Assembly (NCBI RefSeq): GCF_963921235.1
Contig: NC_086108.1
Coordinates: forward strand, 48,734,001-48,798,000
Direction: 5' to 3'
DNA from: Mobula hypostoma
Taxonomy: Eukaryota
Length of the DNA stretch: 64,000 nt
Part shown: in pieces, positions 22,833 through 63,810 of the stretch
Numbering within the stretch: position 1 is the stretch's first letter
Layout: every line of letters begins with the position of its first letter
Made by a program: the position numbers and the translations under genes
Notes under the pieces: generated by a model
The model's database searches: none
Told to the model about the DNA's origin: nothing
What the model saw: only the letters and a program-made list of their open reading frames with translations

Positions 22833-22868
22833 AGTCGACGTTTCGGGCCGAGACCCTTCGTCAGGACT
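22833..22868 (-). ncRNA. Minimal type-I hammerhead ribozyme (PLE pLTR), sense to TPR pre-mRNA
   Basis: AGUC-CUGACGA-A-GGGU(CUCG)GCCC-GAAA-CG-UC|GACU: core, stem I (AGUC/GACU), stem II and palindromic mini stem III (ACGU) are all intact. Confidence 0.85.
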
Positions 22869-23262
22869 AACTGAAGGAAGAGCTAGTAAGAGATTTGAAA
22901 GTGGGAGGGGGAGGGAGAGATCCAAAATGATAGGAGAAGACAGGAGGGGGAGGGATGGAGCCAAGAGCTGGACAGTTGATTGGCAAAAGGAATATGAGAG
23001 GATCATGGGACAGGAGGCCCAGGGAGAAAGAAAAGGGGGAGAGGGGGAAAAATCCCAGAGGATGGGCAAGGGGGTATAGTGAGAGGGACAGAGGGAGAAA
23101 AAGGAGAGAGAGAGAGAAAGAATGTGTGTATATAAATAAATAACGGATGGGGTACGATGGGGAGGTGGGGCATCAGCGGAAGTTTGAGAAGCTTCTCCTA
23201 TCATTTTGGATCTCCCCTTCCCCCTCCCACTTTCAAATCTCTTACTAGCTCTTCTTTCAGTT

Positions 23263-23298
23263 AGTCCTGACGAAGGGTCTCGGCCCGAAACGTCGACT
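23263..23298 (+). ncRNA. Minimal hammerhead ribozyme (PLE pLTR)
   Basis: agtcCTGACGAagggtctcggcccGAAAcGTCgact, intact. Confidence 0.85.
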
Positions 23299-23481
23299 GT
23301 ACCTCTTCCTAGAGATGCTGCCTGGCCTGCTGCGTTCACCAGCAACTTTGATGTGTGTTGCTTGAATTTCCAGCATCTGCATAATTCCTCATGTTTGTGG
23401 TGTAAGGAAAGCAACTTTTCAACTGGTTTGAGGTGTTTACAGATTAACAACCAACAAGTCATCAGCAATTAAACAACTTAC

Positions 23482-23708
23482 TGCGAAGAAGTTTGTTCCT
23501 GCTCTTCCTTTTCCTGTTTTTCAGCAAGTTCACGAACAGTCACCAGTAGTTGTTGATTTTGTTGTTGCAGTTCCTCAACACTACGATAGGTCACCAGGTG
23601 CTGAGAAATTACCTCAGAGGAACTGCTTATGTTGGCAGAACTAACTTCATCTTCACGTAAAATATGATTTCCTCGTGCATCTTCCAGCTCCATCAGAAGA
23701 ATTCTATT
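23482..23708 (-). CDS. TPR: TPR exon 14 (227 nt)
   Basis: [55 protein letters not shown]...EQTSS; CAG/GTAAGT. Confidence 0.96.
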
Positions 23709-24102
23709 CTGAATCACGAGCACAAACATATCCACGTCAGATGAGAAGCAATGGCACATGGATATAACTGCTCCATTAGATCTAAGTAAATTAAATTTTC
23801 AAACATACAAAAGCTCATCTAATGCACAGCAATAGGCCATTCAGCAGATGAAAGAAAGTATATTCTCTTCCTAACAACACTAGGTGTACCTACATTTCAG
23901 GAACGTCAGCAGTTCAAGAAGGCAGCTCATCACCACCTTCTCAAGGGCAACTAGCAATGGGCAATGAACGCTAGCTTAGCTGGTGACACCCGCATCCCGT
24001 AAGTGAATTTTTTAAAATTTAGAGCTGTAGACACCGTAGCAGCTGTAGCTGCTTTGACTTACTGGCATGACAATAAAATGTAACATAATGCTAAATACTA
24101 AC

Positions 24103-24210
24103 CTGCTGTGAAAGATCTGACACTTGCATTTTGTATCTCTGGTTCTCTCTACTAAGCAATGACGCTTGCTTATTCGCTTCATCAGTACATTTTTGTAAAC
24201 GTCGAATTTC
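24103..24210 (-). CDS. TPR: TPR exon 13 (108 nt)
   Basis: EIRRLQKCTDEANKQASLLSRENQRYKMQVSDLSQQ; TAG/GTTAGT. Confidence 0.94.
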
Positions 24211-24674
24211 CTACAGAAGCAGATTTTATCAATGTAATTCACTTTAATACAATTCTTTTACAACATAAATTAGCTTGCATAGCATTTTTAAAGGAATGTT
24301 TAAACAAAGACAATTTTTCCCCAAGAACTGCTTTTAAAATATGGATCAATAAGAATCAATTGTTGTGATAAAGTTTCACAAAACTATTTTGTCCAGATTA
24401 TGCACAGACGATATTCATTATTGAAAAGGAAACAGCTAATACCCAGCTTCCTACCATTGTGCCTTTGTACAGCCTTACAGAACCACAGTTGCACAGCGGA
24501 GAAACGGGTTGTTCAGGCCACCACATACATGCCAACATTCTTGCCCATCTATAGCAATCCCATTTGCTTGTACCAGCTTTATTTTTCTATTTATATTTTC
24601 AAACTGCAGTTATTTGTGGTCAGAAAATGTCTTCAAACCAAGTAATAGTTAAGGAAGTACAGAACAAAAGTTAC

Positions 24675-24872
24675 CTTCATGGCATCTTCTAATTTAGCTG
24701 AAAGATTTGCTACAGCTTTTTGCACACGTTCATATTCTTCACGCTGACGCTTCAGAAGTGGAGCTTTCATCTCTACCTCTTTTACAATTTCATCCAAATA
24801 TTTATTAACTCTCTTATTTTCCTGCTTTGCCAATAGCAACTGATCTTGAGCTTCAACATACCCATTATATAA
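24675..24872 (-). CDS. TPR: TPR exon 12 (198 nt)
   Basis: [75 protein letters not shown]. Confidence 0.96.
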
Positions 24873-24934
24873 CTGTGGAAACATTAAGCAAGCATTTTAT
24901 TTCATCGAAATTACACTTATACATTCTTATTCCA

Positions 24935-27102
24935 AAGAACTCCCAAGAGAGTGCAGAGTTTACATGTTCCTGCCAGAATTAAAGGCAAAGTCAACAGACA
25001 TAGGGAACCTTGGTTTTCGAGGGATATTGGTAATCTGGTTAAGAAAGAGAGAGAGGTGTATAGCAGGTATAGGCAACAAAGAACAAATGAGGTACTTGAA
25101 GAGAATAGAAAATGTAAGAAAATACTAAAGAAGGAAATCAGGAAGGCAAAAAGAAGACATGAGGTTGCTTTGGCAGATAATGTGAAGGTAAACCCGAAGG
25201 GTTTCTACAAGTATATTAAGAGTAAGAGGATAGTAAGGGACAAAATTGGTCCCCTAGAACAGGGGTCCCCAACCTCTGGGCCGCGAAGAATGCAGTGGTG
25301 CAACGGTAGCCGGAACGCTGCATTCTTCACAGCCCGGTATCGGTCTGCAGCCTGGAGGTTGGGGACCACTGCCCTAGAAGATCGGAGTGGTCGTCTATAT
25401 GTGGAGCCTCATGAGATGGGGGAGATCTTAAACAGTTCTTTTTTGCATCAGTATTTACTCAGGAAACTGGCATAATGTATATGGAAGGAAGGGAAACAAA
25501 CAGTAGTGTCATGGAACATATAGAGATTAAAGAGGAGGTGCTTGCTGCCTTACAGCGAATAAAGGTAGATAAATCCCCCGGGCCTGAATGGTATTTCCTC
25601 GGACCTTGAGAGAGATGAGTGTAGAAATTACGGGGGCCCTGGCAGAAATATTTAAAATGTCTTTAGCCACTGGTGTGGTGCCAGAGAATTGGAGGGTAGC
25701 TCGTGTTGTTCCGTTGTTTAAAAAAGGCTCCAAAAGTAAACCAGGGTAATTACAGGCCTGATATCAGTAGTAGGTAAATTATTGGAAGGTGTTCTGAGAG
25801 ATCGGATATACAAGTATTTGGACAGCCAAGGGCTGATTAAGGATAGTCAGCATGGCTTTGTGTGTGGTAGATCATGTTTAACAAATCTTGTAGTTCTTCG
25901 AGGTTACCAAGAAAGTATATGAAGGAAACGCTATGGATGTTGTCTACATGGACTTCAGTAAGGCCTTTGACAAGGTCCCACGTGGGAGGTTAGTTCAGAA
26001 GGTTCAGACACTAGGTATCCATGGAGAGGTTGTAAACTGGATTCGAAATTGGCTGTGTGGGAGAAGACAGAGAGTAGTAGTGGATGTTTGCTTCTCAGAC
26101 AGGAGGCCTGTGACTAGTGATGTGCCTCGGGGATCTGTACTGGGATCATTATTGTTTGTTGTCTATATCAATGATCTAGATGATAATGTGGTAAATTGGA
26201 TCAGCAGTTTGCTGATGACACTAAGATTGGAAGTGTTGTGGACAGTGAGGAAGGCTCTCAAAGCTTACAGAGGGATCTGGACCAATTGGAAAAATGGGCC
26301 AGAAAATGGCAGATGGAATTCAATGCAGACGTGTGAGGTTTTGCATTTTGGAAGGACAAATCAAGGTAGGACATACACAATAAATGGTAGGGCACTGAGG
26401 AGTGTGGAGGAACAAAGAGATCTGGGAGTTCAGATACATAATTCCCTGAAAGTGGCATCACAGGTAGACAGGGTTGTAAAGAAGGCTTTCAGCATCCTGG
26501 CATTCATAAATCAAAGTATTGAGTATAGGAGTTGGGCTGTTACGGTGAGGTTGTATAAGACATTGGTGAGGCCAAATTTGGAGTACTGTGTACAGTTCTG
26601 GTCACCTAACTATAGGAAGGATATCAGTAAGACTGAAAGCGTGCAGAGATTTACTAGGATGTTGCCGGGTCTTCAGGAGTTGAGTTACAGGGAAAGATTG
26701 AACAGGTTAGAACTTTATTCCTTGGAGCGTAGAAGAATGAGGGGAGATTTGATAGAGGTTTACAGAATTATGAGGGCTATAGACAGAGTAAATGCGAGTA
26801 GGCTCTTTCCACTTAGATTAGGAGAGATAAAATACAAGAGGACGTGGCTTTAAGGTGAAAGGGGAAAGGTTTAGGGGGAACTTCTTTACTCAGAGTGGTG
26901 AGAGTGTGGAAAGAGCTGCCATCTGACGTGGTAAATGCGGGCTCACTCTTAAGTTTTAAAATAAATTGGATAGATACATGGATGGGAGAGGCCTGGAGGG
27001 TTATGGACTGGGTGCAGGTCAATGGGACTAGCAGAATATATTCTGCACAGACTAGAAGGGCTGAAGGGCCTGTTTTCTGTGCTGTAGTGTTCTACGGTTC
27101 TA
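24935..27102 (+). mobile_element. CR1-clade LINE, 5'-truncated ORF2, antisense to TPR
   Basis: VVYMDFSKAFDKVP, RGSVLGSLLFVVYINDL and LYKTLVRPNLEYCVQFWSP motifs; several frameshifts. Confidence 0.93.
25260..25371. mobile_element. 112-bp hAT (Charlie-like) MITE inserted in the CR1
   Basis: TIRs CAGGGGTCCCCAACCTC...GAGGTTGGGGACCACTG; 8-bp TSD CCCTAGAA at 25252-25259 and 25372-25379. Confidence 0.93.
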
Positions 27103-27466
27103 AACTCTATCCAGTTTCATTATCACTGCTCTTATGTCACAAATCCTGTGCTTTAAGTAAAATTCTGCTATCAGAAGTTTTGAAAAGCTGCTGTATCTCA
27201 AAACAAAGGTGAATTTTGATTGCTCAAGAAAACTGTAAAGGTGCAAGGAAAAGTTCAGTGGCTGACAGTGAAAATTTGAGTCCTAGAAAATGTAACTGTA
27301 AACAATATGCATGACACTCTGTATATAAAGTATGTTATAATTTATCTATGAGCTTCTGAAAATTTTTGATTGAAGCCCAGCAAAGAAACTCAATTATTAC
27401 CCTCCTATGGTAGACCTCTCCAAGATAAACTGAAATGAACATTAGTAATTAGCACCAGTCTTGTAC

Positions 27467-27561
27467 CTCTGTGAGCTTCATTCCAGGCTTTACGATCTTA
27501 GCAACAGCTGCTGCAGTGGGTGACATAGCTGCAAGCTCCTCTTCTGATAAAGCGGCAGCTC
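27467..27561 (-). CDS. TPR: TPR exon 11 (95 nt; NAGNAG acceptor could give 92 nt)
   Basis: [41 protein letters not shown]. Confidence 0.94.
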
Positions 27562-27645
27562 CTATCATACAAAATACACCACCAGTTGGTACATAACAAG
27601 ACATATTTACTGTTACTAAATATGTTTTTGTATCTACTCAGGCAC

Positions 27646-27786
27646 CTCTAAGCTTTGTAGTTGAAAGCAGATGGTTAGCATTTTCCAGTTCCTTTTCCAA
27701 TTTGATAATCTTTTCATTTAGTTCAGCAACTGCTTTGGTTTTGGAGGTCTCTGTCTCAATCAGACGATCTTCGGTTACTTTATGAG
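27646..27786 (-). CDS. TPR: TPR exon 10 (141 nt)
   Basis: [50 protein letters not shown] acceptor, weak donor AG/GTGCCT. Confidence 0.9.
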
Positions 27787-27897
27787 CTAGAACAAGTATC
27801 AAGCAAGTTAATTTTACAAGGAACTTAAACCAAAAACATCTACACCGAAAGCAACTCGAACCAAAAAAGAATACACAGATGTTTGAAATGAATATAC

Positions 27898-27985
27898 CTT
27901 CATTTGCCTGTTTTAGTAGACTATGAAGCTCCTCGACAGCTCTGGTGAGTTCAGTTGCTTTAGTTTCAGAATCATCAGCTGCACC
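27898..27985 (-). CDS. TPR: TPR exon 9 (88 nt)
   Basis: [38 protein letters not shown]. Confidence 0.95.
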
Positions 27986-28929
27986 CTGCAAAGGTTGAAG
28001 GCTTGGTATTTACTACACAACATTCACTGGTGGTTTATCTTAAAATCCAATCACTAGAGGTCAAATGAATGTTCTTAAAAGAGAGCCAGGTCCATCAATA
28101 TTACTAAAAAATGCAAAATTATCAAGTCATATTGATGTGGACCTTGCAGGTACTCAAAAAGATTAGCAAAAGCATGGAACTGTCAAGAGACAAAAAAATC
28201 CAAAACATGGCAGATGACACAAAGAAGTGTGTAAAATACAAGCAAGAATGTTGTAATAGCATCAAAACAGCACATTAAAGTTAATGGAACAAACAGGCTT
28301 GTGCTAATAGAGAAGTATGAAGTTAGACATGGCAGTGATAGAGATCCATACAGGCAACACCCAAGTTCATTATTCAGGTTATGCAAATTCACTTCTATGA
28401 ATTCACCCAACATTGCACAAAAATTTGAGTTATGGAATAAAATGAATTCTCACGGAAATCATGTGAGGAAAATAATTCAATAACCACAAAAAGTGAAAGA
28501 AACGATACATTTTGTCCCTTTTTATTTTTCGTCACTCATACAGTGGAGAATTAAGATCTGGATACGATATGCCCTGTTCAGTCAAAGAATATGTGAATAG
28601 ATGTCTCGGACTACAGCAATGCACAGTACCTGCGAGTCATTTTCTGTGACCCGCTGCTTTGCAGGAGCCTCAGTAGCCACATCCAGCTCTTGGACCTACT
28701 CCTTTACATAATCCCTCGAGCTACTTCACAACAACTGAGGCATCTCATTTTAAACCATTACCATGCTGAACATCTATACTACCCTTCTCCCATGAACCCT
28801 GCTGCTTTCATTCATGCTTCCTAAACCAATTCCTAGTCCATATCAATACACACACACACCCCCGCACGAAGAGCAGGTTAATATATAAGATGTCCCAACA
28901 TTAAAATCTGTTTAAAATCTAAGACAGAT

Positions 28930-29535
28930 TCAAGATCAGAATCAGGTTTAATATCACCTGGATACGTCACAAAATTTGTTGTTTTGCAGCAGCAGTATAT
29001 TGCAAAACAATTAAAAAAACTATAAATTACGATAAGAAATACATATAAAAATGAAATTAGTTCAAAAAGAGAGCAAACAAAAGGAAAAAAATTAAGGTAG
29101 CCTACATGGATTCAATGTCCATTCAAAAAGATATCTGATGGCAGAGAAGAAGCTGTTCCTGAAAAGCTGAGTTTATGTCTTCAGGCTCCTGTATCTCCAT
29201 GATAGTAGCAATGAGAAGTGGGCATATTCTAGGTAATCGGGTCCTCAATGATGTACGATGCCTTTATGAGGCATCAACTTTTGAAGATGCACTCGATGCT
29301 GGAGAGGTTAGTTCCCATCATGGAGCTGGCTGAGTTTACAACTTTCTGCAGCTTTTTCCTGTGCAGTGGGCCCTCCATACCAGACAGTGATGCAACCAAT
29401 TTGAATGCTCTCCACGGTACATCTTAAGAAATTTGCAAGTCTTTGGTGACATACCAGTCTCAACAAACTTCTATTGAAATATAGCCACTGTTGTGCCTAG
29501 TTGCATCAATATATAGGGCCTAGGATAGATCTTCA
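28930..29535 (-). mobile_element. Rex1/Babar-type LINE 3' fragment
   Basis: Reverse complement resembles 58940-59350; (ATTCTG)n-like tail. Confidence 0.7.
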
Positions 29536-29832
29536 GGCATACATATTACCTCAAAATTAGTTTTCTCCCCTGTAGCTGTGACTGTCGCCTTGCATAAATT
29601 AATGTGGGATATTAATGGCTCCCCCCCCCCCGCCAAACTTCCACTACCAGCATTTCAGGATCCTGTCACTTGTTCACTTGTATGGAATCCTAAACCACCT
29701 CATCTACTTTTGGCATGAGAAGCGAGGGATTGCCATGGGTGGAAACAGTCCTTGAAAAATTTACCAGCATTTCTCTGGAAATTCCAAGTGCTCTGTGCAA
29801 CTAAGTAACATTTAAAAGAGAAAAGATTATAC

Positions 29833-29913
29833 CTTGTACAAATTTGACAACTTCACATGTGCATTCAATTCGTTTCGAAACCTCTCTTCCATAGTTGCCG
29901 ACTGTTCCTTGGA
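29833..29913 (-). CDS. TPR: TPR exon 8 (81 nt)
   Basis: [36 protein letters not shown]. Confidence 0.95.
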
Positions 29914-30308
29914 CTGATCAGAAAACAGAAACAGATGTAAGCTTGGTATAAACAGACCTAACCCTAGATAGCCGTAAACATGAATTTCCAATGAAAGTAT
30001 AATTTATTTATTACTACACACCTGCTTCACTATTTCCTCTATATAGAGAAGTTTACAGATTTGATTTCAGAAAATACCAGACACTGAATGGCTTGATTTT
30101 TTAAAACTTTCTGCTAAATTCTACCCCAACTATTGTAGTGGATTATTGGTGTAGCTTGGTACATTGGAAAGCTAACAGAGAAAAATAAATTTGAAAGATG
30201 AACAATGACAGAAACTATTTTAATGTGCACCATAACTGAACTGGGGAAACATGTTCCAATTTTTGAATATTATTTTTGCTCATTCAATTACCGTTAACAA
30301 AGACTAAC

Positions 30309-30401
30309 CTCCTTCAATTTATTCATTAAATCCTCAACCTGCTCCTCAAGGTTTTCCTTAGCTGCTTTTAACGTATGAATTTGCTCTTCTAGGCTGCAAA
30401 T
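30309..30401 (-). CDS. TPR: TPR exon 7 (93 nt)
   Basis: ICSLEEQIHTLKAAKENLEEQVEDLMNKLKE; CAG/GTTAGT. Confidence 0.93.
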
Positions 30402-30867
30402 CTGTAGAAGGTAACAGTTAAAAATCAACAACCGGGTTAGTCAGTGCCAGAGAATCAAATGTGAATGCGTTCAGAGAGGTTTCACAGGTGAAAGTAAGAA
30501 GAAAAGCATTAAGTGGCAGACTCCCTTCAAGTCTGCATGTGATACATTAAAACCTAGTAATTGTGCTGAGTTTGAGTGTTGTAGATTTAATTTCTAGCTT
30601 TCAAATTAAATAAACCCTTCCATCAAGTTCAGATAAAAAATAGTAAAATGGACTGTTTTAAATTCGTTCTTTCTTTTTAAAATTGTATTTATGTTTTTTT
30701 TCTTCTGAATGTATTATATGTCTGTGATGCTGCTTCAATTAAGCTTGATTACACATGCATATACATGCACATACGATAATAAACTCAACTTTGTCTTGAA
30801 CCTTTGGGTTGCTGAGAAAGATAGAAATGTTATTGTTTGTATTCACCAAGCAAAAAGGACAGATTAC

Positions 30868-31032
30868 CTCGTCTTTCTTGTTCTCCAGATTGCATCGGAG
30901 CTCGAGAATTTCATTGCTTTTTTCTCGACGAAGTCCGACAAGTTCATCCGTCTTTGTTTTTATTTCTGTATTCAACCAACTGTTCTGATTCATTAATAAT
31001 TCTTTTTCTTGTTCCAGACGCTTTTCACGATA
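30868..31032 (-). CDS. TPR: TPR exon 6 (165 nt)
   Basis: [64 protein letters not shown]. Confidence 0.96.
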
Positions 31033-31461
31033 CTGCAAAAAAATTGGTTTACCAATCACAGAATCATTCCCATTGAAGGTAAGCCCACTGGACAGAGTGC
31101 TCCAGAATTTAGATCTAACGATGATGAAATGGCAATATACATCCTAGCCTTGAGGTAGAACTTGCATGGGGTGTTCCATGCACTTGCTACTTATTCTCCT
31201 TCAAAGTAGAGGTCACATGCTTGGAAGGAGTAGTTGGACTATTCTGCAGAACATTTAGGGTAGTGGATAGGTTGTCAGTTCAGCAATCTTTGTCCCAGAT
31301 GGCAGACTTACTGGAGTAGTAATCCAGTATTCGATCCAGTCAAGTGTCTTCCATTACACTTGGAGCCACTGTATTTAACGTGACTGATCCAACAGGAAGA
31401 AATAGGCCCTCAGCACTGACTTACTAATGCCTTTCAAATTCTATTTTTCACTGTGATTACC

Positions 31462-35223: not shown

Positions 35224-35839
35224 ACTTCATCAGGACTGGAAAGGAAGGGGAAAGAAGTCAGATGAAGGAGGTGGGAGGAGGGGAGGAAGAAGCACAAGGT
35301 GATAGGTGAAACCAGGAGAGGCGGGTAAGGATTGGCAAAGAGCTGGGAAGTTGGTGAAAAGATAAAGGACTGGAGGAGGGGGAGATCTGATAGGAGGATA
35401 GAAGACCATGGAAGAAAGTGAAGAGGGAGAAGCATCAGAGGGAGGTGTTGGGCAGTAAAGGAGACAACATAAGAGGGGGAAAACAGAAATGGGGAATGGT
35501 GGGGGGGGGGGGGGCAATCACCGGAAGTTCAAGAAATTGATGTTCATACCATCAGGTTGGTGGCTACCCAGACAGAACAAAAGATGCTGCTCCTCCAACC
35601 CAAGTGTGGCCTCATCGTGGCAGTAGAGGCGTCCATGGACTAACATATTGGAATGGGAATGGAAAGTAGAATTGAAATGGGTGGCCACTGGGAAATCCCA
35701 CTCTTTGTAGCAGATGGAGCAAAGGCACCCAACGAAGTGGTCTCTCAATCTATGTCAGGTCTCACGGATATACAGGAAGCCAGACTGAGACCACTGGATA
35801 CAATAGATGACCCCAACAGACACACAGGTGAAGTGCAGC
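35224..35839 (-). mobile_element. Penelope-like element fragment (GIY-YIG C-terminus plus pLTR truncated within the hammerhead)
   Basis: FPVATHFNSTFHSHSNMLVHGRLYCHDEATLGLEEQHLLFCLGSHQPDGMNINFLNFR. Confidence 0.85.
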
Positions 35840-44004: not shown

Positions 44005-44444
44005 TCAAACAAGACAAAATCTGCAGATCCTGAAAACCTGAGCAACACATACAAAATGCTGGAGGAATTCAGCCGGCCAGGCAGCATCTATGGAAAAAAG
44101 TACAGTCGATTTTTCAGGCCAAAACCTCTCGGTAGGACTGGAGAAAAAAAGCTGAGTAGATTTAAAAGGTGGGGGGCAATGCCCCCAAAACCCCCTTCTC
44201 CATTACCCATCCCCTTTTCCCATCTCACCAATCAACTTCCCAGCTCTTTACTTCATCCCTCCCCCTCCAAGTTTTATCTATCACCTGGTGGTTCTCTCTA
44301 CCCTCCCCCCACCTTTTAAATTACTCCTCAGCTTTTTTTTTCTCCAGTCTTGCCAAAGGGTTTCGGTCCGAAATGTCAACTATACTTTTCTCCCATAGAT
44401 GCTGCCTGGCCTGCTGAGTTCCTCCAGCATTTTCTGTGTGTTGG
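44005..44444. mobile_element. Older fold-back Penelope-like insertion with two decayed hammerheads
   Basis: Minus-strand pLTR tail followed by a plus-strand pLTR; TSD TCTTCATAA at 43993-44001 and 44445-44453. Confidence 0.8.
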
Positions 44445-45188: not shown

Positions 45189-46530
45189 AAGCAACACACA
45201 CAGAACACTGGAGGAACTCAGGCAGCATTGATGAAAATGAATAAACAGCTGACATCTTGGGCCAAGACCCTTCATCAGAACTGGGAAAGAAGGGGAATGA
45301 TGCCAGAATAAAACACTGAGGGGAGGGAGAAGGATGACAAGCTGGAAGGTGATAGGTGAAGTCAGGTGGGTGGGAAAAGTAAAAGGATGAAGAAGGATCT
45401 GATAGGAGAGAAGAGTAGATCATGGGAGAAAGGGAAGAAAGAGGGGCACCAGGGGTGGGGTGGATGGGGTGGTAGGCAGGTGAGGAGAAGAGGTCAGAGG
45501 CAAGAGGCTAAAGTGGGGAAAAGAAGAAGGACGAGGGGGGAGGGGAAAGGAAGAGGAAATATTATCTATTGGAGAAATCAATGTTCATAACATCAGGTTG
45601 GAGGCTACTTTGACAGAATATGTGCTATTGCTCCTCCACCCTCAGAGTGGCCTCATCATGGCAGAAAAGGAAGCCATGAATCAGCATGTCAGAATGGGAA
45701 TGGGGATAGGAATTACAATGGTTAGCCACAGAGAACTTCCACTTTTGGCAAATAGAGCAGAGGTGCTTGACAAATTAATCCTCCAATTTACAGTGGGTCT
45801 CACCTATGTAGAGAAGGACTGTTTGAGGCCCTGAATGGAGGGAGGAGGAAGGTGGATGAGCAGGTGTAGCATTCACCTCACTTTCTGGGATAAGTGTGCC
45901 AGGAGAGAGATTAGTGGGATGGGACTAATGGACAAAGGAATCACAGAGAGAACAATCCCTACAGAGTTGGGGCAGAGGGGGTGCAGGAGAAGTAAAGATG
46001 TGGTTAGGGGTAGGATCCCATTGAAGGTGGCAGAAGTTGCAAAGAACATGCTGGATGTGGAGACTCATGGAGACTCATGGTAGGTGAGGACTAAAGGAAC
46101 TCTATCCCTGTTAAGGTAGTAGAAAGAAGGGGTGATCACAGATGTCCAGGAAATGGGGGAGACGTGAATAAGGGCAGTATCAATGGTGGAGGAAGGAAAA
46201 CTCCGTTCTTTGGAGGAGGACATCTTTGATGTCCTAGAAAAGTAGGTCTCGTCCTGGGAACAGGTGCCATGGAGATGAGGGAACTGAGAAAAGGGAACAG
46301 CATTTTTTACAGGAGACAGGGTGGGAAGCGGTATAGCCAAGATAGCCACAGGAATCAATAGATTGAGAAAAACATGTCAGTAAACAGTTTTTCTCCAGAG
46401 TTGGAAACAGTGAGGTTGAGAAAGGGGAGAGAAGTATCAAAAATGGACTAAGTGAATTTAAGGACAGGGTGGAAGTTGGAGGCAGCTGATGAAATTAACA
46501 AGCTCAGCATGGGTGCAAGAAGCAGCAACA
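45189..46530 (-). mobile_element. Old Penelope-like element (RT C-terminus, GIY-YIG, pLTR with decayed hammerhead)
   Basis: KNAVPFSQFPHLHGTCSQDETYFSRTSKMSS...RVPLVLTYH, homologous to 56618-58031. Confidence 0.85.
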
Positions 46531-48260: not shown

Positions 48261-48805
48261 AGTGGAAATTTGAGAAGTCAATGTTCATGCCATCAGGTTG
48301 GAGGTTACCCAGACAGAATATAAGGTATTGTTCCTCCAACCTGAGTGTGGCTACATCTTCTCAAACTTCCGCTAATGCCCCACCTCCCCCCGTACCCTAT
48401 CCATTATTTATTTATATACACACACATTCTTTTTCTCTCTCCTTTTTCTCCCTCTGTCCCTCTCACTATACCCCTTGCCCATCCTCTGGATTCCCCCCTC
48501 CCCCTTTCTTTCTCCCTTGGCCTCCTGTCCCATGATCCTCTCATATCCCTTTTGCCAATCAACTGTCCAGCTCTTGGCTCCATCCCTCCCCCTCCTGTCT
48601 TCTCCTATCATTTCGGATCTCCCCCTCCCCCTTTCAGATCTCTTACTAGCTCCTCTTTCAGTTAGTCCTGACGAAGGGTCTCAGCCAAAAACATCAACTG
48701 TACCTCTTCCTAGAGATGCTGCCTGGCCTGCTGCGTTCACCAGCAACTTTTATGTGTGTTGCTTGAAATTCCAGCATCTGCAGATTTCCTCGTGTTTGCA
48801 GTTTT
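48261..48805. mobile_element. Penelope-like fragment with a short inverted 5' segment
   Basis: Minus-strand ORF-end piece (48261-48358) joined to a plus-strand pLTR; decayed hammerhead at ~48664-48699; no clear TSD. Confidence 0.8.
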
Positions 48806-52487: not shown

Positions 52488-52758
52488 GTTACCATCTGCG
52501 CCGACAACCAGCCCGCCGCCCGCCACGTCAGGGACGTCACTTACGATGCGCCACAGGCGCCTCTTGTGAATCAGGCCTACGCAAGTCAGCGCGTATTTCC
52601 CTTGGGGAGCTACAAATGTAATCCGGAAAATGCAGGCAATACCACCTCCCTGCAAGATTTTCTTACACACACGCAATGCAGGGAGCTGTTCACGGTCATC
52701 AACCGTGGTCAGAATCTTCCACACATTACATTGTACTTTTGTGTCCTCCCCCCACTGA

Positions 52759-52771
52759 ACTACAATTCCCA
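52759..52771 (+). promoter_or_regulatory. ZNF143/THAP11 (SBS) motif ACTACAATTCCCA
   Basis: Exact match to the ACTACAnnTCCCA promoter motif, about 270 bp upstream of the TPR ATG. Confidence 0.75.
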
Positions 52772-53016
52772 ACAGCCGTCGCGCAGCCGGTTGAGCTCGC
52801 GCTTCGGCTGTCGCGTCCGTGCTCAGGAATGCGGAAAAACACCGGCCCATGATCTATCCCGATGGCCGCCTCCAATTTTAATGAACGTCTTCGGGGCAGA
52901 TGAGATAGACCTCGCAATAGAATAACTGTTGGCAGCTATGGTCAAACAGATGAGTCCACTTCTGTAAATAATGAGTAAAGGTGGTGCTCAGTTCTTAAAA
53001 TTAAATTTACACTTAG

Positions 53017-54206
53017 GCTTTTCATTCTAGGACGAGAGAGATGTCTTCCTTTTTTAAAGAAAGGGGCTTCCCTTCCTCCACTATCAACTCTGCTCTTAAA
53101 CGCATCTCCTCCATTTCACGTACATCTGCTCTCACTCCATCCTCCCGCCACCCCACTAGGAATAGGGTTCCCCTGGTCCTCACCTACCACCCCACCAGCC
53201 TCTGGGTCCAACATATTATTCTCCGTAACTTCCGCCACCTCCAACGGGATCCCACCACTAAGCACATCTTTCCCTCCCCCCCCCGCTTTCCGCAGGGATC
53301 GCTCCCTACACAACTCCCTTGTCCATTCGTCCCCCCCCCATCCCTCCCCACTGATCTCCCTCCTGGCACTTATCCGTGTAAGCGGAACAAGTGCTACACA
53401 TGCCCTTACACTTCCTCCCTTACCACCATTCAGGGCCCCAAACAGTCCTTCCAGTTGAGGCAACACTTCACCTGTGAGTCGACTGGGGTGATATACTGCG
53501 TCCCGTGCTCCCGATGTGGCCTTTTATATATTGGCGAGACCCGACGCAGACTGGGAGACCGCTTTGCTGAACAATCTATGCTCTGTCCGCCAGAGAAAGC
53601 AGGATCTCCCAGTGGCCACACATTTTAATTCCACATCCCATTCCCATTCTGACATGTCTATCCACGGCCTCCTCTACTGTAAAGATGAAGCCACACTCAG
53701 GTTGGAGGAACAACACCTTATATTCCGTCTGGGTAGCCTCCAACCTGATGGCATGAACATCGACTTCTCTAACTTCCGCTAGGCCCCACCTCCCCCTCGT
53801 ACCCCATCTGTTACTTGTTTTTATGCACACATTCTTTCTCTCACTCTCCTTTTTCTCCCTCTGTCCCTCTGAATATACCCCTTGCCCATCCTCTGGGTCC
53901 CCCCCCCGCTTGTCTTTCTTCCCGGACCTCCTGTCCCATGATCCTCTCGTATCCCTTTTGCCTATCACCTGTCCAGCTCTTGGCTCTATCCCTCCCCCTC
54001 CTGTCTTCTCCTATCATTTTGGATCTCCCCCTCCCCCTCCAACTTTCAAATCCCTTACTCACTCTTCCTTCAGTTAGTCCTGATGAAGGGTCTCGGCCTG
54101 AAACGTCGACTGCACCTCTTCCTACAGATGCTGCCTGGCCTGCTGCGTTCACCAGCAACTTTGATGTGTGTTGCTTGAATTTCCAGCATCTGCAGAATTC
54201 CTGTTG
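53017..54206 (+). mobile_element. Young 5'-truncated Penelope-like element (linker, Zn-finger, GIY-YIG, pLTR with hammerhead)
   Basis: CKRNKCYTC and GVIYCVPCSRCGLLYIGETRRRLGDRFAE; 11-bp TSD TTTACACTTAG at 53006-53016 and 54207-54217. Confidence 0.95.
54076..54111 (+). ncRNA. Minimal hammerhead ribozyme (PLE pLTR)
   Basis: agtcCTGATGAagggtctcggcctGAAAcGTCgact; G-U pair at base of stem II. Confidence 0.8.
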
Positions 54207-54551
54207 TTTACACTTAGATTGTTTTCTTTAAAGTAAGAAAACATTAATTCCCCTTGTACATTAAATTACATCATGAGAAGTGATAATATGTATAAAATTA
54301 ACAAATTGGTTATGTGCAGACCTACACACGATTGTTTTGACTTGTCAATGACATTAATGATTTGGATGAGACTGTAGTTGGCATAGCAAGCAAATTTACA
54401 GATGATACCAAAGATGGTGGTGTGGAGGACAGTGAAGAAAATTGTCTGAGACAGCAACAGGATTTAATCAACTGGGAAAATAGGCCAAGATGTGGCAGGA
54501 CCCTGAAGATGGTTGTAAAACCTTTCCCTGTAAAACCCAGGCAGAGTATAA

Positions 54552-55480: not shown

Positions 55481-56054
55481 AAAATATTTGCAGAACAGAA
55501 ATAAGTGCATAATCCCTGAATATGGTGACACAGTTAGATAGGGTAGTGAAGAAGTTCAAAGTGATCTCTGTCTCAGAGGCTGATGTTAGGCTGTCTTTAA
55601 ACAGGGTGAACCCTCCCAAGTCAAAAGGTCCTGATGGAGTACCTGGTAAGGCTCTGAAAACCTGTGCCAACCAACTGGTGGGAGTATTCAAGGACTTTTT
55701 CAACCTCTAATTGCTAAGGGCAGAAGTTCCCACTTGCTTCAAAAAGGCAACAGTTATACCAGTGAGTAAGAAGAATAATGTGAGCTGCCTTAATGACTAT
55801 CACCTGGTAGCACTCACATCTACAGTGATGAAATGCTTTGAGAAGTTGGTCATGACTAGACTGAACTCCTGTCTCAGCAAGGACCTAGACCCATTGCAGT
55901 TTGCCTATCGCCACAATAGGTCAACGACAGATGCAATCTCAATGGCTCTTCACACGGCTTCAGACCACTGGACAACACAAACACCTACGTCAAGATGCTC
56001 ATAAAAGTTGCTGGTGAACACAGCAGGCCAGGCAGCATCTCTAGGAAGAGGTAC

Positions 56055-56090
56055 AGTCGACGTTTCGGGCCCAGACCCTTCATCAGGACT
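56055..56090 (-). ncRNA. Minimal hammerhead ribozyme (inverted pLTR)
   Basis: agtcCTGATGAagggtctgggcccGAAAcGTCgact on minus strand. Confidence 0.8.
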
Positions 56091-56617
56091 AACTGAAGGA
56101 AGAGTTAGTAAGAGATTTGAAAGTGGGAGGGGGAGGAGATCCGAAATGATAGGAGAAGACAGGAGGGGGAGGGATGGAGCCAAGAGCTGGACAGTTGATT
56201 GGCAAAAGGGATATGAGAGGATCATGGGACAGGAGGCCCAGGGAGAAAGAAAGGGGAAGGGGGGAAGCCCAGAGGATGGGCAAGGGGTATAGTGAGAGGG
56301 ACAGAGGGAGAAAAAGGAGAGAGAGAAAAAGAATGTGTGTATATAAATAAATGAATAACGGGTGATGCCTACACTGAAGGAAGCCTCTTCCAGTGATGCC
56401 TACACTGAAGAAGTTTAAATCTTCTCTTCGACGAGAGTTCAGTGAAACCATCTCTCACTGCTCCCCATCTGTAATTTCTTTGGCTCTTCAACTTTTTGAC
56501 CACATTTTGACTCAGACTCGCTATCACAGCCATATATCCTTTCTTGGAAACCTCACCTCCCCCTCGTACCCCATGTGTTATTTAATTATTTATATACACA
56601 CATTCTTTTTCTCTCTC

Positions 56618-58031
56618 GTTGACTTTATTAACTTTGCCTCCAACTTTCACCCTGCCCTCAAGTTTACCTGGTCCATTTCCGACACCTCCCTCCCCTTTCT
56701 AGATCTTTCTGTCTCTGTCTCTGGAGACAGCTTATCCACTGATGTCTACTATAAGCCTACTGACTCTCACAGCTATCTGGACTATTCCTCTTCTCACCCT
56801 GTCTCTTGTAAAAACGCCATCCCCTTCTCGCAATTCCTCCGTCTCCGCCGCATCTGCTCTCAGGATGAGGCTTTTCATTCCAGGACGAGGGAGATGTCTT
56901 CCTTTTTTAAAGAAAGGGGCTTCCCTTCCTCCACTATCAACTCTGCTCTTAAACTCATCTCCCCCATTTCATGTACATCTGCTCTCACTCCATCCTCCCG
57001 CCACCCCACTAGGAATAGGGTTCCCCTGGTCCTCACCTACCACCCCACCAGCCTCCGGGTCCAACATATTATTCTCCGTAACTTCCGCCACCTCCAACGG
57101 GATCCCACCACTAAGCACATCTTTCCCTCCCCCCCCCCTGCATTCCGCAGGGATCGCTCCCTACACAACTCCCTTGTCCATTCGTCTCCCCCATCCCTTC
57201 CCACTGATCTCCCTCCTGGCACTTATCCGTGTAAGCGGAACAAGTGCTACACATGCCCTTACACTTCCTCCCTTACCACCATTCAGGGCCCCAAACAGTC
57301 CTTCCAGTTGAGGCAACACTTCACCTGTGAGTCGACTGGGGTGATATACTGCGTCCGGTGCTCCTGATGTGGCCTTTTATATATTGGTGAGACCCGACGC
57401 AGACTGGGAGACCGCTTTGCTGAACACCTACGCTCTGTCCACCAGAGAAAGCAGGATCTTCCAGTGGCCACACATTTTAATTCCACATCCCATTCCCATT
57501 CTGACATGTCTATCCACGGCCTCCTCTACTGTAAAGATGAAGCCACACTCAGGTTGGAGGAACAACACCTTATATTCCGTCTGGGTAGCCTCCAACCTGA
57601 TGGCATGAACATCGACTTCTCTAACTTCCGCTAAGGCCCCACCTCCCCCTCGTACCCCATCTGTTACTTATTTTTATGCACACATTCTTTCTCTCACTCT
57701 CCTTTTTCTCCCTCTGTCCCTCTGAATATACCTCTTGCCCATCCTCTGGGTTCCCCCCCCCCACCTTGTCTTTATTCCCGGACCTCCTGTCCCATGATCC
57801 TCTCATATCCCCTTTTGCCTATCACCTGTCCAGCTCTTGGCTCTATCCCTCTCCCTCCTGTCTTCTCCTATCATTTTGGATCTCCCCCTCCCCCTCCAAC
57901 TTTCAAATCCCTTACTCACTCTTCCTTCAGTTAGTCCTGACGAAGGGTCTCGGCCTGAAACATCGACTGCACCTCTTCCTACAGATGCTGCTTGGCCTGC
58001 TGCGTTCACCAGCAACTTTGATGTGTGTTGC
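56618..58031 (+). mobile_element. Inner young Penelope-like element (RT C-terminus, GIY-YIG, pLTR)
   Basis: VDFINFASNFHPALKFTWSISDTSLPFLDLSV...VYYKPTDSHSYLDYSSSHP; TSD TTCTTTTTCTCTCTC at 56603-56617 and 58032-58046; highly similar to 53017-54206. Confidence 0.92.
57933..57968 (+). ncRNA. Hammerhead ribozyme copy with CpG-type decay in stem III (GAAACATC)
   Basis: agtcCTGACGAagggtctcggcctGAAAcATCgact. Confidence 0.7.
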
Positions 58032-58282
58032 TTCTTTTTCTCTCTCTCCTTTTTCTCCCTCTGTCTGTCTCCCTCACTATACTCCTTGGCCATCCTCTAG
58101 GCTTCCTCCCTCCCTGTTTTCTTCCTCCCTAGGCCTCCCATCCCATGATCCACTCATATCCCTTTTGCCAATCACCTGTCCAGCTCTTGGCTCCATCCCT
58201 CCCCCTCCTGTCTTCTCCTATCATTTTGGATCTCCCCCTCCCCCTCTCACTTTCAAATCTCTTACTAGCTCTTCCTTCAGTT

Positions 58283-58318
58283 AGTCCTGACGAAGGGTCT
58301 CGGCCCGAAACATCGAAT
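58283..58318 (+). ncRNA. Hammerhead ribozyme copy, partly decayed
   Basis: agtcCTGACGAagggtctcggcccGAAAcATCgaat; mismatches in stems III and I. Confidence 0.65.
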
Positions 58319-59529
58319 GTACCTCTTCCTAGAGATACTGCCTGGCCTGCTGCGTTCACCAGCAACTTTTATTGTGTTGCTTGAAATTCCAGCATTTGCA
58401 GATTTCCTCATGTCAAGATGCCGTTCATCAACTATAGCTCAGAATTTAATACCATCATTCCCACAATCCTAACTGAGAAGTTACAGACCTGGGCCTCTGT
58501 ACCTCCCTCTGCAATTGGATCCTTGACTTCCTAACCAGAAGACCACAATCGGTACAGATTGGTGATAGCATATCCTCCTCGCTGACGATCAACACTGATG
58601 CACCTCAGGGTGTGTGCTTAGCCTGCTGCTCTACTCTCTATATCCACATGACTGTGTGGCAAGGCATAGCTCAAATACCATCTATAAATTTGCTGATGAT
58701 ACAACCATTTTTGGTAGAATCTCAGATAGTGATGAGAGAGCATACAGGAGCAAGATATGCCAACTAGTTGAATGGCGTCACAGCAACAACCTGGCACTCA
58801 GCGTCAGTAAGATGAACGAGCTGATTGTGGACTTCAGGAAGGGTAAGACAAAGGCAGACATATCAATCCTCATAGAGGGATCAGAAGTGGAGAGAGTGAG
58901 CCATTTCAAGTTCCTGGGTGTCAAGATCTCTGAGGATCTAACCTGGTCCCAACATATCTATGCAGCTGTAAAGAAGGCAAGACAGCGTGTATACTTCATT
59001 AGGAGTTTGAAGAGATTTGGTATATCAACAAACACACTCAAAAGCTTCTATAGATGTATCATTGGAGAGCACTCAGAAAGGCTGCATCACTGTCTGGTAT
59101 GGAGGGGCTACTGCACAGGACCGAAAGAAGCTGCAGAAGGTTGTAAATTTAGTCGACTCCATCTTGGGTACTAGCCCACAAAATATCCAGAACATCTTCA
59201 AGAAGCGGTGTCTCAGAAAGGCAGCGTCCATTATTAAGAACCTCCAACACCAAGGGCATGACCTTTTCTCACTGTTACCATTGAACTGCTGCTGCTAAGT
59301 TAACAAATTTCATGACACGTGCCGGTGATAAAATTGATTCCGATTCTGATTCTAAATTTATTATTGAATTACATGTAGGTTACCATAGATTACCTAGCGA
59401 TTAAGAAGACTTTTGGCATCATTGCATTCATTGGTCAGGGCATAGATGTGGAAAGTCATATTACAACTGTACATACTTGGAGAATTGTGTGCATTTCTGG
59501 TCACCAGCTATGGGAAGGATGGCATTAGA

Positions 59530-60040: not shown

Positions 60041-60215
60041 TTTCTGAATGGAGTTAAATACCATCACAATGAAATAATAATTAGCTGACACGTGCATATT
60101 CACAAGCGCAGTCGCCGTGTCTGCTGCGCTGCCGAATCCGTGGTTGTGACAAAAGCTCCCAACAATTAGATCTATTATTTGATATGCTGAGTGTTGCTTC
60201 CAACTGGTCTGCAAG

Positions 60216-60948
60216 TAGGGTTGCCAACTGTCCCGTATTTGCCGGGACATCCCGTATATTGGGCTAAATTGGTTTGTCCCATACGGGACCGTTCTTGTCC
60301 CGTATTTCCCCCGCTAAGGTAGAGCGTTCCTATGAAACCTTTCGTGCCGAGATGGCGTAAGGTAAAGAAGCAATTACCATTAATTTATATGGGAAAATGT
60401 TTTCGGCGTTCCCAGACCCAAAAAAATAACCTACCGAATCATACCAAATAACACATAAAACTGAAAATAACACTAACATATAGTAAAAGCAGGAATGATA
60501 TGATAAATACACAGCCTATATAAAGTAGAAACAATGTATGTACAGGTACAGTATAGTCGGGAAGATTAAGCCAAAACCGATTGGGTGGGGGGGGGGAATC
60601 GGCACGTACGCGCAGGCGCACATCACATAAGCACACGTTACGCATGCGCACACAGGTGCCCGCGCAAGGCTTCATGGTCATGGTAGTCTTTCATGGGGTA
60701 TACAGGGGTGTCGCGTATTTCGCATAAAAGTTGCTGGTGAACGCCGCAGGCCAGTCAGTATCTCTAGGAAGAGGTACAGCCCGAAACGTCGACTGTACCT
60801 CTTCCTAGAGATGCTGCTTGGCCTGCGGCGTTCACCAGCAACTTTTATGTGTGTTGCTTGAAATTCCAGTATCTGCCAGTTTCCTTGTGTCCCGTATTTG
60901 ACTGCTACTTTTGTCCCTTATTTGGGAGTAAGATAGTTGACAACCCTA
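60216..60948. mobile_element. hAT (Blackjack-like TIR) MITE containing Tigger-terminal sequence
   Basis: TAGGGTTGCCAAC...GTTGACAACCCTA; perfect 8-bp TSD TCTGCAAG at 60208-60215 and 60949-60956. Confidence 0.9.
60721..60886. mobile_element. 166-bp mini fold-back Penelope pLTR insertion
   Basis: 57-bp inverted arms 60723-60779 and 60793-60849; TSD GTGTC(G/C)CGTATTT at 60708-60720 and 60887-60899. Confidence 0.9.
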
Positions 60949-61581
60949 TCTGCAAGCTTCCTTGAACTAAGCAACTTAGTCAACTTGCCTGTTTTGAAAC
61001 AAGCTGATCATTGATTTCAGGAGAAGGAAACCAGTGGTCCATGAGCCAGTCCTCATCTGGGGATCAGATGGTGAGAGTTAGTAACTGTACTTTCCTCGGT
61101 GTTATCATTTCAGAGTACCTGTCCTGGATCCAGCACCAAAGTGCCATTATGATGGAAGCAGAGCAGTGGCTATAACTTATTTGGAATTTGCAAAGATTCA
61201 GCATGTCATCTAAAACTTTGACAAACTTATAGAGATGTATTGTGGAGAGTATATAGACTGTCACTTGCATCATGGCCTGGTATGGAAACACTAATGCCCT
61301 TGAATGGAAAAGCCTACAAAATGTATTGGATATGGCCCAGACCATCACAGGTAAAGTCCTCCCCACCACTGAGCATATCTGTACAGACTGCTGTTTCAGG
61401 AAAGCAGCATCAATCGTCACAGACCCCCACTATCCAGGCCGTGTTCTGTTCCCATTACAGGAGCTACAGGACCCACACCTCCAGGGTCAGAAACAGTTAT
61501 TACCCCTCAACCATCAGGCTCTTGACCCAGAGGGGATAACTTCACTCTCCCCATCACTGAACTGTTCACACAATCTATGGA

Positions 61582-62028
61582 AACAACAGGAATTCTGCAG
61601 ATGCTGGAAATTCAAGCAACACACATAAAAGTTGCTGGTGAACGCAGCAGGCCAGGCAGCATCTCTAGGAAGAGGTGCAGTCGACGTTTCAAATCCCTTA
61701 CTCACTCCCCTCCAACTTTCAAATCCCTTACTCACTCCCCTCCAACTTTCAAATCCCTTACTCACTCTTCCTTCAGTTAAGTACCCCTTGCCCATCCTCT
61801 GGGTCCCCCCCCCCTTTTCTTTCTCCCTGGGCCTCCTGTTCCATGATCCTTTCATATCCCTTTTGCCTATCACCTGTCCAGCTCTTGGCTCCATCCCTCC
61901 CCCTCCTGTCTTCTCCTATCATTTTGGATATCCCCCTCCCCCTCCAACTTTCAAATTCCTTACTCACTCTTCCTTCAGTTAGTCCTGACGAAGGGTCTCA
62001 GCCTGAAACGTCGACTGCACCTCTTCCT
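61582..62028. mobile_element. Fold-back Penelope pLTR insertion with a 30-bp stutter
   Basis: TSD ACACAA(T/C)CTATGGA at 61568-61581 and 62029-62042; minus arm to ~61690, 30-bp unit repeated about 3 times, then plus pLTR. Confidence 0.88.
61981..62016 (+). ncRNA. Minimal hammerhead ribozyme (PLE pLTR)
   Basis: agtcCTGACGAagggtctcagcctGAAAcGTCgact. Confidence 0.78.
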
Positions 62029-63037
62029 ACACAACCTATGGACTCGCTTTCAAGGATTCTTCATCTCATGTTCTTGATATTTATTTCTTATTAATTTATT
62101 GTTATTATATTTTTTATTTTTTTCTCAGCTCAAGCTGGTAAAAACCGAGGTATGGACATGGCCAAGCACACTCATTTCTCAATTGCTAGGAACTTTTGGA
62201 CAATTCTGGTGGCATTTAGTATCATGACTTTATGGAGATTTACTTAAATATTTCTGTATCAGCTGAATTGTTTAACGCTATTGTGTAGTGACTTTGGGAT
62301 AACACCATTTGTAAGCATTACTACAGAATTAAGAAAATGTATACTTGTTACCTGGACTATTCCTCTTCTCACCCGGTCTCTTGCAAAAATGCCATCCCCT
62401 CCTCGCAATTCCTCCGTCTCCGCCGCATCTGCTCTCAGGATGAGGCTTTTCATTTCAGGACAAAGGAGATGCCCTCCTTTTTTAAAGAAAGGGGCTCCCC
62501 TTCCTCCACCATCAACTCTGCTCTTGAACGTATCTCCCCCATTTCACCGACATCTGCTCTCACTCCATCCTCCTGCCACCCCCACTAGGAATAGGGTTCC
62601 CCTTGTCCTCACCTACCACCCCACCAGCCTCTGGGTCCAACGTATAATTCTCCATAACTTCCGCCACCTCCAACGGGATCCCACCACTAAGCACATCTTT
62701 CCCTCCCCCCCCACCCCCCGCTTTCTGTAGGGATCGCTCCCTACATGACTCCCTTGTCCATTCGTTCCCCCCCATCCCTCCCCACCAATCTCCCTCCTGG
62801 CACTTAACCTTGTAAGTGAAACAAGTGCTACACATGCCCTTACACTTCCTCCCTTACCACCATTCAGGGCCCCAAACAGTCCTTCCAGGTGAGGTGACAC
62901 TTGACCTGTGAGTCTGTCTGTCTGTGTCTTGTTTTACAGTGGTTGGCATCCAGCTTAATGATGCATTACTGCCACCTTCTGCTCTGGAATGTGCACTGGA
63001 CATATAATCTAAATCCCTTCACCCAATCTCGCTCGCG

Positions 63038-63041
<4 letters not shown>

Positions 63042-63087
<46 letters not shown>
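63042..63087. repeat. (CA)n microsatellite
   Basis: Direct read of the sequence. Confidence 0.95.
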
Positions 63088-63088
<1 letters not shown>

Positions 63089-63774
63089 CTACACTTTACC
63101 CTCCCATCTTTGACCATCCTAGTACCCTATTCCTGTTTATCCATCATATCCCATAAAAAAACCCCTGTACCCCACCTGATGTGATATACTGCGTCTGGTG
63201 CTCCTGATGCGGCCTTCTATATATTGGCGAGACCCGACACAGACTGGGAGATTGTTTTGCTGAAAACCTACGCTCTGTCCGCCAGAGAAAGTAGGATCTC
63301 CCAGTGGCCGCACATCTTAGTTCCACATCCCATTCCCATTCTGATATGTCTATCCACGGCCTCCTCTACTGTAAAGATGATGCCACACTCAGGTTGGAGG
63401 AACAACACCTTATATTCCGTCTGGGTAGCCTCCAACCTGATGCCATGAACACTGACTCCTCAAACTTCCACTCATGCCCCACCTCCCCCTCGTACCCCAT
63501 ACGTTATTTATTTATATATATATATACATTCTTTTTCTCTCTCTCCTTTTTCTCCTTCTGTCCCTCTCACTATACCCCTTGCCCATCCTCTGGGCTTCTC
63601 CCCTCCCCCTTTCTTTCACCCTAGGCCTCCTGTCCCATGATCCTCTCATATCCCTTTTGCCAATCACCTGTCCAGCTCTTGGCTTCATCCCTCCCCCTCC
63701 TGTTCTCTCCTATCATTTCGCATCTCCCCCTCCCCCTCCCACTTTCAAATCTCTTACTAGCTCTTCCTTCAGTT

Positions 63775-63810
63775 AGTCCTGATGAAGGGTCTCGGCCCGA
63801 AACGTCGACT
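63775..63810 (+). ncRNA. Minimal hammerhead ribozyme (PLE pLTR)
   Basis: agtcCTGATGAagggtctcggcccGAAAcGTCgact, intact. Confidence 0.85.

Follow-up and report, generated by a model that had tools for sequence, protein, structure and literature searches.

A minimal type-I hammerhead motif, probably dimer-dependent, in the pseudo-LTRs of Penelope-like elements of the ray Mobula hypostoma

Small hammerhead ribozymes with a short palindromic stem III were reportedly described in Penelope-like elements (PLEs) by Lunse, Weinberg and Breaker, who are said to have proposed that they cleave as dimers. Here we analyze a 36-nucleotide (nt) motif that recurs in a 64,000-nt stretch of the genome of the ray Mobula hypostoma (contig NC_086108.1, positions 48,734,001 to 48,798,000; hereafter the window), where it lies about 300 nt into a repeat of about 430 nt, the pseudo-long terminal repeat (pLTR) of a PLE, directly behind an open reading frame (ORF) on the same strand. 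The motif is probably a minimal type-I hammerhead in the pLTR of a ray GIY-YIG PLE, likely of the Neptune type, which would cut after GUC likely only when copies pair with each other through ACGU.

The arrangement itself was published in 2014 for metazoan PLEs (PMC4209133). As far as sequence can tell, the ray motif fits the minimal hammerhead ribozymes (min-HHRs) of that paper in every testable feature. Both are of type I, lack loop III, are palindromic at 15.2-16.2, have one base between A9 and 10.1, a G10.1-C11.1 pair and a short stem I, and are located in pLTRs in sense to the PLE ORF; in both, most copies are single and truncated, and some form opposite-strand pairs at distances of 100-700 nt. 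The 4-bp stem II of the ray represents the short end of the min-HHR range and is also present in Acropora and Nematostella rows, and the G.U at 10.1-11.1 of one ray subfamily (S2, see below) is found in several min-HHR rows (PMC4209133). An Acropora Neptune element in Fig. S3 of PMC4209133 has the same layout, with a 4-bp stem II, a tetraloop and CGUC. A double hammerhead was proposed in that paper, and was weakly active for a Schistosoma motif. No cartilaginous fish appears among the rows of its Fig. S3 or Table S1 covered here, and no description of this ray family was found in the open-licence literature.

Other described systems share parts of this arrangement. Neptune-clade PLEs (PMC8557442, PMC3846280) have, like the ray element, a C-terminal GIY-YIG with CCHH and a CX2-5CxxC linker, together with the inverted 5' pLTR and 30-40-nt tail that are hallmarks of PLEs, and target-site duplications of 8-10 bp are reported for rotifer PLEs in the same sources. 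The Anolis Poseidon element PAc (PMC11167929) also carries a pLTR hammerhead and has two classes of 3' end that define a tail downstream of the ribozyme; its ORF starts inside the ribozyme, however, whereas the ray ORF start at 56396 lies outside both the motif and the ~100 nt that follow it. Non-LTR retrozymes, reported from one chondrichthyan genome with a mean unit of 363 bp, are likewise pLTR-derived with a type I hammerhead, but form tandem arrays with a ribozyme in each unit, whereas the ray copies are dispersed PLE 3' ends (bioRxiv 10.64898/2026.07.22.740005). We rejected a retrozyme reading of the window, since its only same-strand motif pair (57933/58283) was made by a nested insertion, has lost the palindrome in both copies and does not amount to head-to-tail units that each hold a complete hammerhead and no ORF.

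Copies and layout of the motif

The sequence-only reading had placed the motif at eight sites and decayed or partial copies at eight others, and all of them exist. A mismatch scan with the 23263 copy recovered the first eight with 0-2 differences (0 at 22833(-) and 23263, 1 at 63775, and 2 each at 54076, 56055(-), 57933, 58283 and 61981). The others comprise five copies with 5-9 differences (48664, 5; 14176, 6; 44346, 7; 45247(-), 8; 44104(-), 9) and three half or partial copies (35225-35237(-), 60780-60794(+) and 61679-61691(-)). The claim of two diagnostic young subfamilies (S1 and S2) plus older ones was confirmed by comparison of the pLTRs, in which the diagnostics hold. Note however that the 48664 copy, previously called decayed, belongs to the young family (S1-type) and carries G12A.

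22833..22868, minus strand: intact motif, S1, inverted arm of insertion A; sense to the host TPR gene
23263..23298, plus strand: intact motif, S1, direct arm of insertion A with tail; predicted cut 23294/23295
48664..48699, plus strand: motif with G12A and broken palindrome, S1-type
54076..54111, plus strand: motif, S2, core intact, G10.1.U11.1
56055..56090, minus strand: motif, S1, core intact; inverted arm of outer insertion E
57933..57968, plus strand: motif, S2, palindrome broken (ACAU)
58283..58318, plus strand: motif, S1, palindrome broken (ACAU), stem I mismatch; 350 nt after 57933
61981..62016, plus strand: motif, S2, core intact, G10.1.U11.1; direct arm of insertion G
63775..63810, plus strand: intact motif, S1, end of insertion H
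14176..14211, plus strand: old-subfamily motif, U2.1-A1.1 pair, behind GIY-YIG end 13769-13978
44104..44139, minus strand: old decayed motif, A6C, inverted arm of insertion B (44008-44443, 9-nt duplication)
44346..44381, plus strand: old decayed motif, A6C, direct arm of insertion B
45247..45282, minus strand: old decayed motif behind decayed PLE ORF 45568-46553
35225..35237, minus strand: old motif, 5' third, behind GIY-YIG end 35521-35841
60780..60794, plus strand: motif 3' half, within short inverted insertion F (60723-60876)
61679..61691, minus strand: motif 3' half, inverted arm of insertion G (61582-62031)

In hammerhead numbering the motif consists of stem I (AGUC/GACU), CUGAYGA, one extra A, stem II (GGGU/GCCC, with a 4-nt loop), GAAA, the pair C15.2-G16.2 without a loop, U16.1 and C17. 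This layout and the anatomy of the element verify the minimal type-I architecture and the PLE context that had been proposed. The proposed stem I of 4 bp does have four pairs, but a fifth (U.G in young copies) extends it. As it had been written, the motif is exact in three of the eight copies (22833, 23263 and 63775) and the other five differ: U at 11.1 gives G.U where the motif has G-C at 54076, 57933 and 61981, the 56055 copy departs in loop II and N7 alone, and ACAU breaks the stem-III palindrome at 57933 and 58283. Consequently, the loopless, self-complementary stem III (ACGU) stands at six of the eight sites, all with the core kept as well. The core in type-I order (CUGANGA ... GAAA ... 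UH) is intact at all eight and broken in 48664 and in three of the four old copies. Among the nine young copies the palindrome is ACGU in six and, by CpG change, ACAU in three. Across 13 copies the extra base between A9 and 10.1 is A in 12, and position 11.1 is C in 7, U in 5 and A in 1; stem pair compensation within the window was seen for U2.1-A1.1 in two old copies and for no other pair.

The motif is also recovered without reference to the family. A family-independent descriptor of minimal hammerheads gave 8 matches in the window, against a mean of 0.03 (maximum 1) in 100 dinucleotide shuffles, and a scan for the core pattern gave 6 against 0.00 in shuffles. An Rfam scan of the window returned no hammerhead family at E<=1, a miss that is presumably to be expected for a motif without stem III. 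The 36-mer contains five CpGs, at an observed/expected ratio of 1.49 compared to 0.32 in the window; they fall on G8, G12, the palindrome and the cut site. CpG transitions account for 28 of the 46 differences among the 13 copies. There is also a second palindrome, GUCGAC, across the cut site.

The Penelope-like element and its insertions

Inverted 5' arms, a 34-35-nt tail and target-site duplications of 7-11 nt establish that the element is a PLE. It probably belongs to the Neptune type, as the CX2-5CxxC linker motif suggests. The ORF follows the PLE order of reverse transcriptase (RT) thumb, Zn-linker and GIY-YIG. Its longest piece (56618-57634, read with X at its internal stop; P0001) contains a CX4CXXC linker (residues 205-213) and a GIY-YIG-like box, in which C245, C248, H270 and H286 form the CCHH by inspection; the Pfam GIY-YIG match (E 6e-4, 20.5 bits) lies below the curated cut-off of 22.6. 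Pfam found nothing in the unjoined ORF pieces (five of five PLE fragments), a PDB sequence search with the element gave no relevant match, and viral contigs yielded 0 matches to the motif family pattern.

Longer relatives (133 of 2781 candidates at E<=1e-10) cover 97-99% of the ORF query and have the RT core that the window lacks, with RVT_1 in most of the best 120 of the 133. Identity among the named close relatives was highest in Mobula hypostoma itself (95%), followed by Hypanus sabinus (71-90%), Rhincodon (68%), Stegostoma (63%) and Chiloscyllium (54-65%); shark relatives overall showed 54-68% and corals and other invertebrates about 50%. In a tree of 30 chosen rows of 241 fetched proteins, built without the RT core and without labelled clade references, the window ORF grouped with rays (support 100/99) and rays with sharks in an elasmobranch clade (100/98), a pattern that fits vertical inheritance of the PLE family in sharks and rays. 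Two NCBI isoforms that carry host-gene names (P0125 and P0128; divergent protein kinase domain 1C and chitinase domain-containing protein 1) match the PLE ORF at 76-87% and are either annotation artefacts or exonised PLE copies. A predicted Stegostoma protein (P0129) runs through the pLTR and ends, at residues ~508-520, in a peptide matching the translated hammerhead motif, which hints at the same motif in the zebra shark element.

22771..23395, no strand assigned: insertion A, two outward-pointing pLTR arms, 11-nt target-site duplication
48259-48796: insertion C, holds the 48664 motif and an inverted ORF-end piece
53015..54208, plus strand: insertion D, 5'-truncated PLE, frameshifted RT thumb-linker-GIY-YIG, pLTR from ~53779, tail, 11-nt target-site duplication
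54112..54208, plus strand: region 3' of the motif, conserved blocks and optional 34-35-nt tail
56000-58412: insertion E, complex, 10-nt target-site duplication
56396..56551, plus strand: PLE ORF codons 1-52, matching full-length relatives from residue 1 (blastp E 1e-5 to P0014 and P0008, 241 proteins)
56618..57634, plus strand: 3' part of PLE ORF (RT thumb, CX4CXXC linker, GIY-YIG); one internal stop at 57365-57367
56618-58031, plus strand: S2 copy nested in S1 pLTR, 15-nt duplication; contains the ORF part 56618..57634
62349-63871: insertion H, ORF pieces, interrupted, 10-nt target-site duplication

Eight insertions were examined, and seven have direct repeats of 7-11 nt at their ends, the eighth having a 6-nt match only. 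An inverted arm is present in six (A, B, C, E, F and G). The tandem at 57933/58283 arose when an S2 copy entered an S1 pLTR, so the eight sites represent six insertion events, and the nested S2 copy of insertion E is younger than its S1 host. Ten 3' ends, measured from the predicted cut, fall at 65-67 nt (four), at 100-101 nt (four) and at 59 and 94 nt (two), and the two classes imply that the optional tail is 34-35 nt long; the longer class is partly bounded by the chosen reference copy, while the ends of A, B and D are fixed by duplications. PLE pieces make up about 14.7% of the window (9409 of 64000 nt), and every copy is truncated, with no full-length copy and no intact ORF among them. The closest pairs from different insertions diverge by 1.8-3.2%, full-length S1 and S2 pLTRs by 7-12%, and young and old pLTRs by 28-34%. 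The family had been described as recently active, which stands in relative terms only, given closest pairs at ~2-3% divergence but no intact ORF in the window.

Individual insertions show further rearrangements. In insertion E, which has an inverted pLTR, the first 52 ORF codons are joined straight to the pLTR start, by internal deletion or template jump. Insertion G carries a 30-nt pLTR piece three times head-to-tail at its inverted junction (61687-61779), with TTTCA microhomology to the reverse of the motif, and this triple repeat looks like repeated re-priming during insertion. The two arms of insertion B share A6C and a change of the first loop II base from C to U.

Conservation, mechanism and alternatives

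A lack of motif conservation over the flanking pLTR had been named beforehand as a result that would speak against a ribozyme; in the window and in contigs, the motif instead exceeds its upstream flank. The four old copies keep 114/144 motif positions (91/104 without CpG sites) compared to 140/240 in the 60 nt upstream (Fisher P 5e-8 without and 3e-5 with CpG sites; the copies are partly dependent, two of the four coming from one insertion). We surveyed contigs, rather than reads, from 4 of 24 listed sequencing runs (four organism codes, four studies) at 80% likeness, which gave 10599, 65771, 276 and 2972 contigs per run. In contigs of other subfamilies, divergence sets in exactly at either end of stem I, with 130, 967 and 33 loose ends just before 54076 in three runs and 155, 1294, 62 and 63 just behind 54112 in all four. 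Furthermore, depth in run X9 was 2563 and 2368 over the motif vs 89-325 just upstream. The loose-end rows listed (24 of 1229) show no pile at the predicted cut 54108, which in contig data is evidence neither way. The 40 contig substitutions listed, of 142, include one in the motif (N7) and do not include the known 11.1 difference, and this count was not used.

The motif is one of several conserved islands. Two blocks 3' of it (54132-54149 and 54168-54203) are possible recognition sites of RT or the endonuclease (EN). Structure was not evident in this 3' region, with folding z-scores of -0.35 and -1.09; across 6 copies, 0/26 pairs had changed on both sides.

A metagenome scan whose pattern prescribed nothing beyond the core and the outer letters of stem II matched at least 121 loci. 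The loci listed provide 124 usable motifs without a blastn match to the pLTR flanks here, in 42 flank groups, and it is on these that covariation was measured at pattern-free positions. Pairing was found at 2.1-1.1 in 36/42 groups, at 2.2-1.2 in 38/42, at 10.3-11.3 in 38/42 and at 10.4-11.4 in 34/42, levels reached for any of these pairs in 0/5000 shuffles; the shuffles ignore relatedness, and some of the 42 groups share a motif. These motifs mark a PLE motif that is widespread and structurally constrained and not a ray invention, and together with the conservation data they support the view that selection acts on the motif within element lineages. Five metagenome contigs (L011, L039, L060, L073 and L085) each carry two opposite-strand motifs, ~50-480 nt apart in the four pairs with listed positions, which is the inverted two-arm layout in other lineages.

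Dependence of cleavage on dimers is likely, judging from the architecture and from papers on other species. A lone copy would be inactive: it lacks stem III, and in its predicted fold the core is hidden by pairing between GACG and CGUC (-12.9 vs -8.9 kcal/mol for the open core). Two copies, whether in one tandem transcript or in two RNAs, would form a double hammerhead and cut slowly; stem-III pairing between copies is predicted at -1.7 kcal/mol for ACGU and +3.4 for ACAU. Such paired cutting may release full-length elements from PLE transcripts that are long, tandem or read-through. Reverse transcription would then begin 65-67 or 100-101 nt downstream and read through an uncut site, so that genomic copies carry the whole motif; as every full copy spans the cut site, the integrated templates would have been uncut there or rejoined. 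After insertion the five CpGs would decay, with core or palindrome lost in most copies, and the dispersed copies here would consequently be by-products, mostly inert. In the predicted pre-mRNA fold, the 22833 copy, the only intact one in sense to TPR, pairs along its full length with its inverted partner.

A number of observations weigh against this mechanism. The sole same-strand pair has no palindrome in either copy, and A6C in both arms of insertion B suggests that copying probably still took place from a template whose core was broken. The 60 nt downstream in old copies are identical at 31-49 of 60 positions, overlapping the motif's own identity, and the EN end, 54132-54149 and 54168-54203 are covered as well as or better than the motif in runs X1, X19 and X16. 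Among the metagenome loci listed, outer stem I pairs show weak covariation or none (2.3-1.3 in 23/42 groups, reached by 83/5000 shuffles; 2.4-1.4 in 16/42, reached by 1310/5000), and a PLE EN end lies upstream on the same strand in only 15/62 motifs with at least 600 nt upstream. In the published systems, catalytic mutants of the Anolis PLE had no effect on insertion in vitro, and no RNA-seq reads ended at its cut site (PMC11167929); Schistosoma motif dimers were cleaved at a low level (PMC4209133); and Naiad PLEs thrive without a hammerhead motif (PMC8557442).

Several of these points would suit a motif that is a hammerhead by descent but acts mainly as a structural signal, through RNA pairing of the palindrome or recognition by RT/EN, with cleavage dispensable for mobility. 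Genomic copies spanning the cut site, A6C common to both arms of insertion B, the second palindrome over the cut site, the frequency of two arms in insertions and the Anolis mutants that still insert in vitro (PMC11167929) all favor such a signal. We nevertheless consider it unlikely, since the catalytic-core letters are kept in old and young subfamilies, CpG decay and insertion B aside, A6C stays below 4% in each of the four runs (by change-type counts, with all A>C places explained elsewhere), and a 4-nt duplex is worth just -1.7 kcal/mol. It is less probable still that the mini-hammerhead is a pairing signal comparable to the retroviral dimer-initiation site, which would join two PLE RNAs in one reverse-transcription complex and so give rise to the two-armed inverted insertions typical of PLEs, with the CpGs providing a methylation off-switch for the very many intronic ray copies.

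Cutting by a monomer that is aided by a protein or a longer-range partner strand, with no dimer dependence, would agree with the proposal of host factors on account of low dimer rates (PMC4209133) and with the self-cleavage of Anolis PLE RNA in assays with PLE protein (PMC11167929). By established hammerhead geometry, however, two bases are too few to close a loop between A15.1 and U16.1, and the self-complementary C15.2-G16.2 is the commonest state in the published rows (PMC4209133); we regard this explanation as very improbable. Least credible is a fortuitous resemblance, in which an abundant repeat would carry the motif along under no selection; this view is already largely refuted. The absence of an Rfam hammerhead match, a folding z-score of only -1.27 for the isolated motif and a majority of CpG transitions, as neutral decay after insertion predicts, are compatible with it. 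It is contradicted by conservation beyond the upstream flank, by contig breakpoints at both stem I ends, by stem pairs that covary across unrelated flanks and by the retention of five CpGs at a ratio far above that of the window. The probable reading remains a minimal hammerhead that would cut when copies pair.

Host gene context and significance

The insertions lie in and around a gene for nucleoprotein TPR.

4527..31143, minus strand: TPR exons (PF07926 4527-4793, PF25785 23481-23798, PF25481 30742-31143)

Motif copies up to 48796 are located between or beyond the TPR exons, and copies past a CpG island at ~52000-53000 are upstream of TPR. A second host gene on the plus strand beyond 53000 was not found with a short motif. 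Insertion A (22771-23395) contains, within a TPR intron, an inverted repeat of 159 nt with 97% complementarity, which would give long double-stranded RNA in the pre-mRNA, a possible substrate for editing or small-RNA pathways. Fragments of long interspersed element (LINE)-type reverse transcriptases are present at 25894-26853(+), 41784-43220(-), 55711-56001(+) and 58599-59174(+), and insertion E splits one such LINE.

The analysis extends a known pairing of element and ribozyme to rays and does not define a new kind of RNA or element. Its 36 nt make the motif a compact system for asking what role hammerheads play in PLEs. Furthermore, the abundance of the family permits a genome-wide test of whether sense-strand copies capable of dimer formation have been purged from introns.

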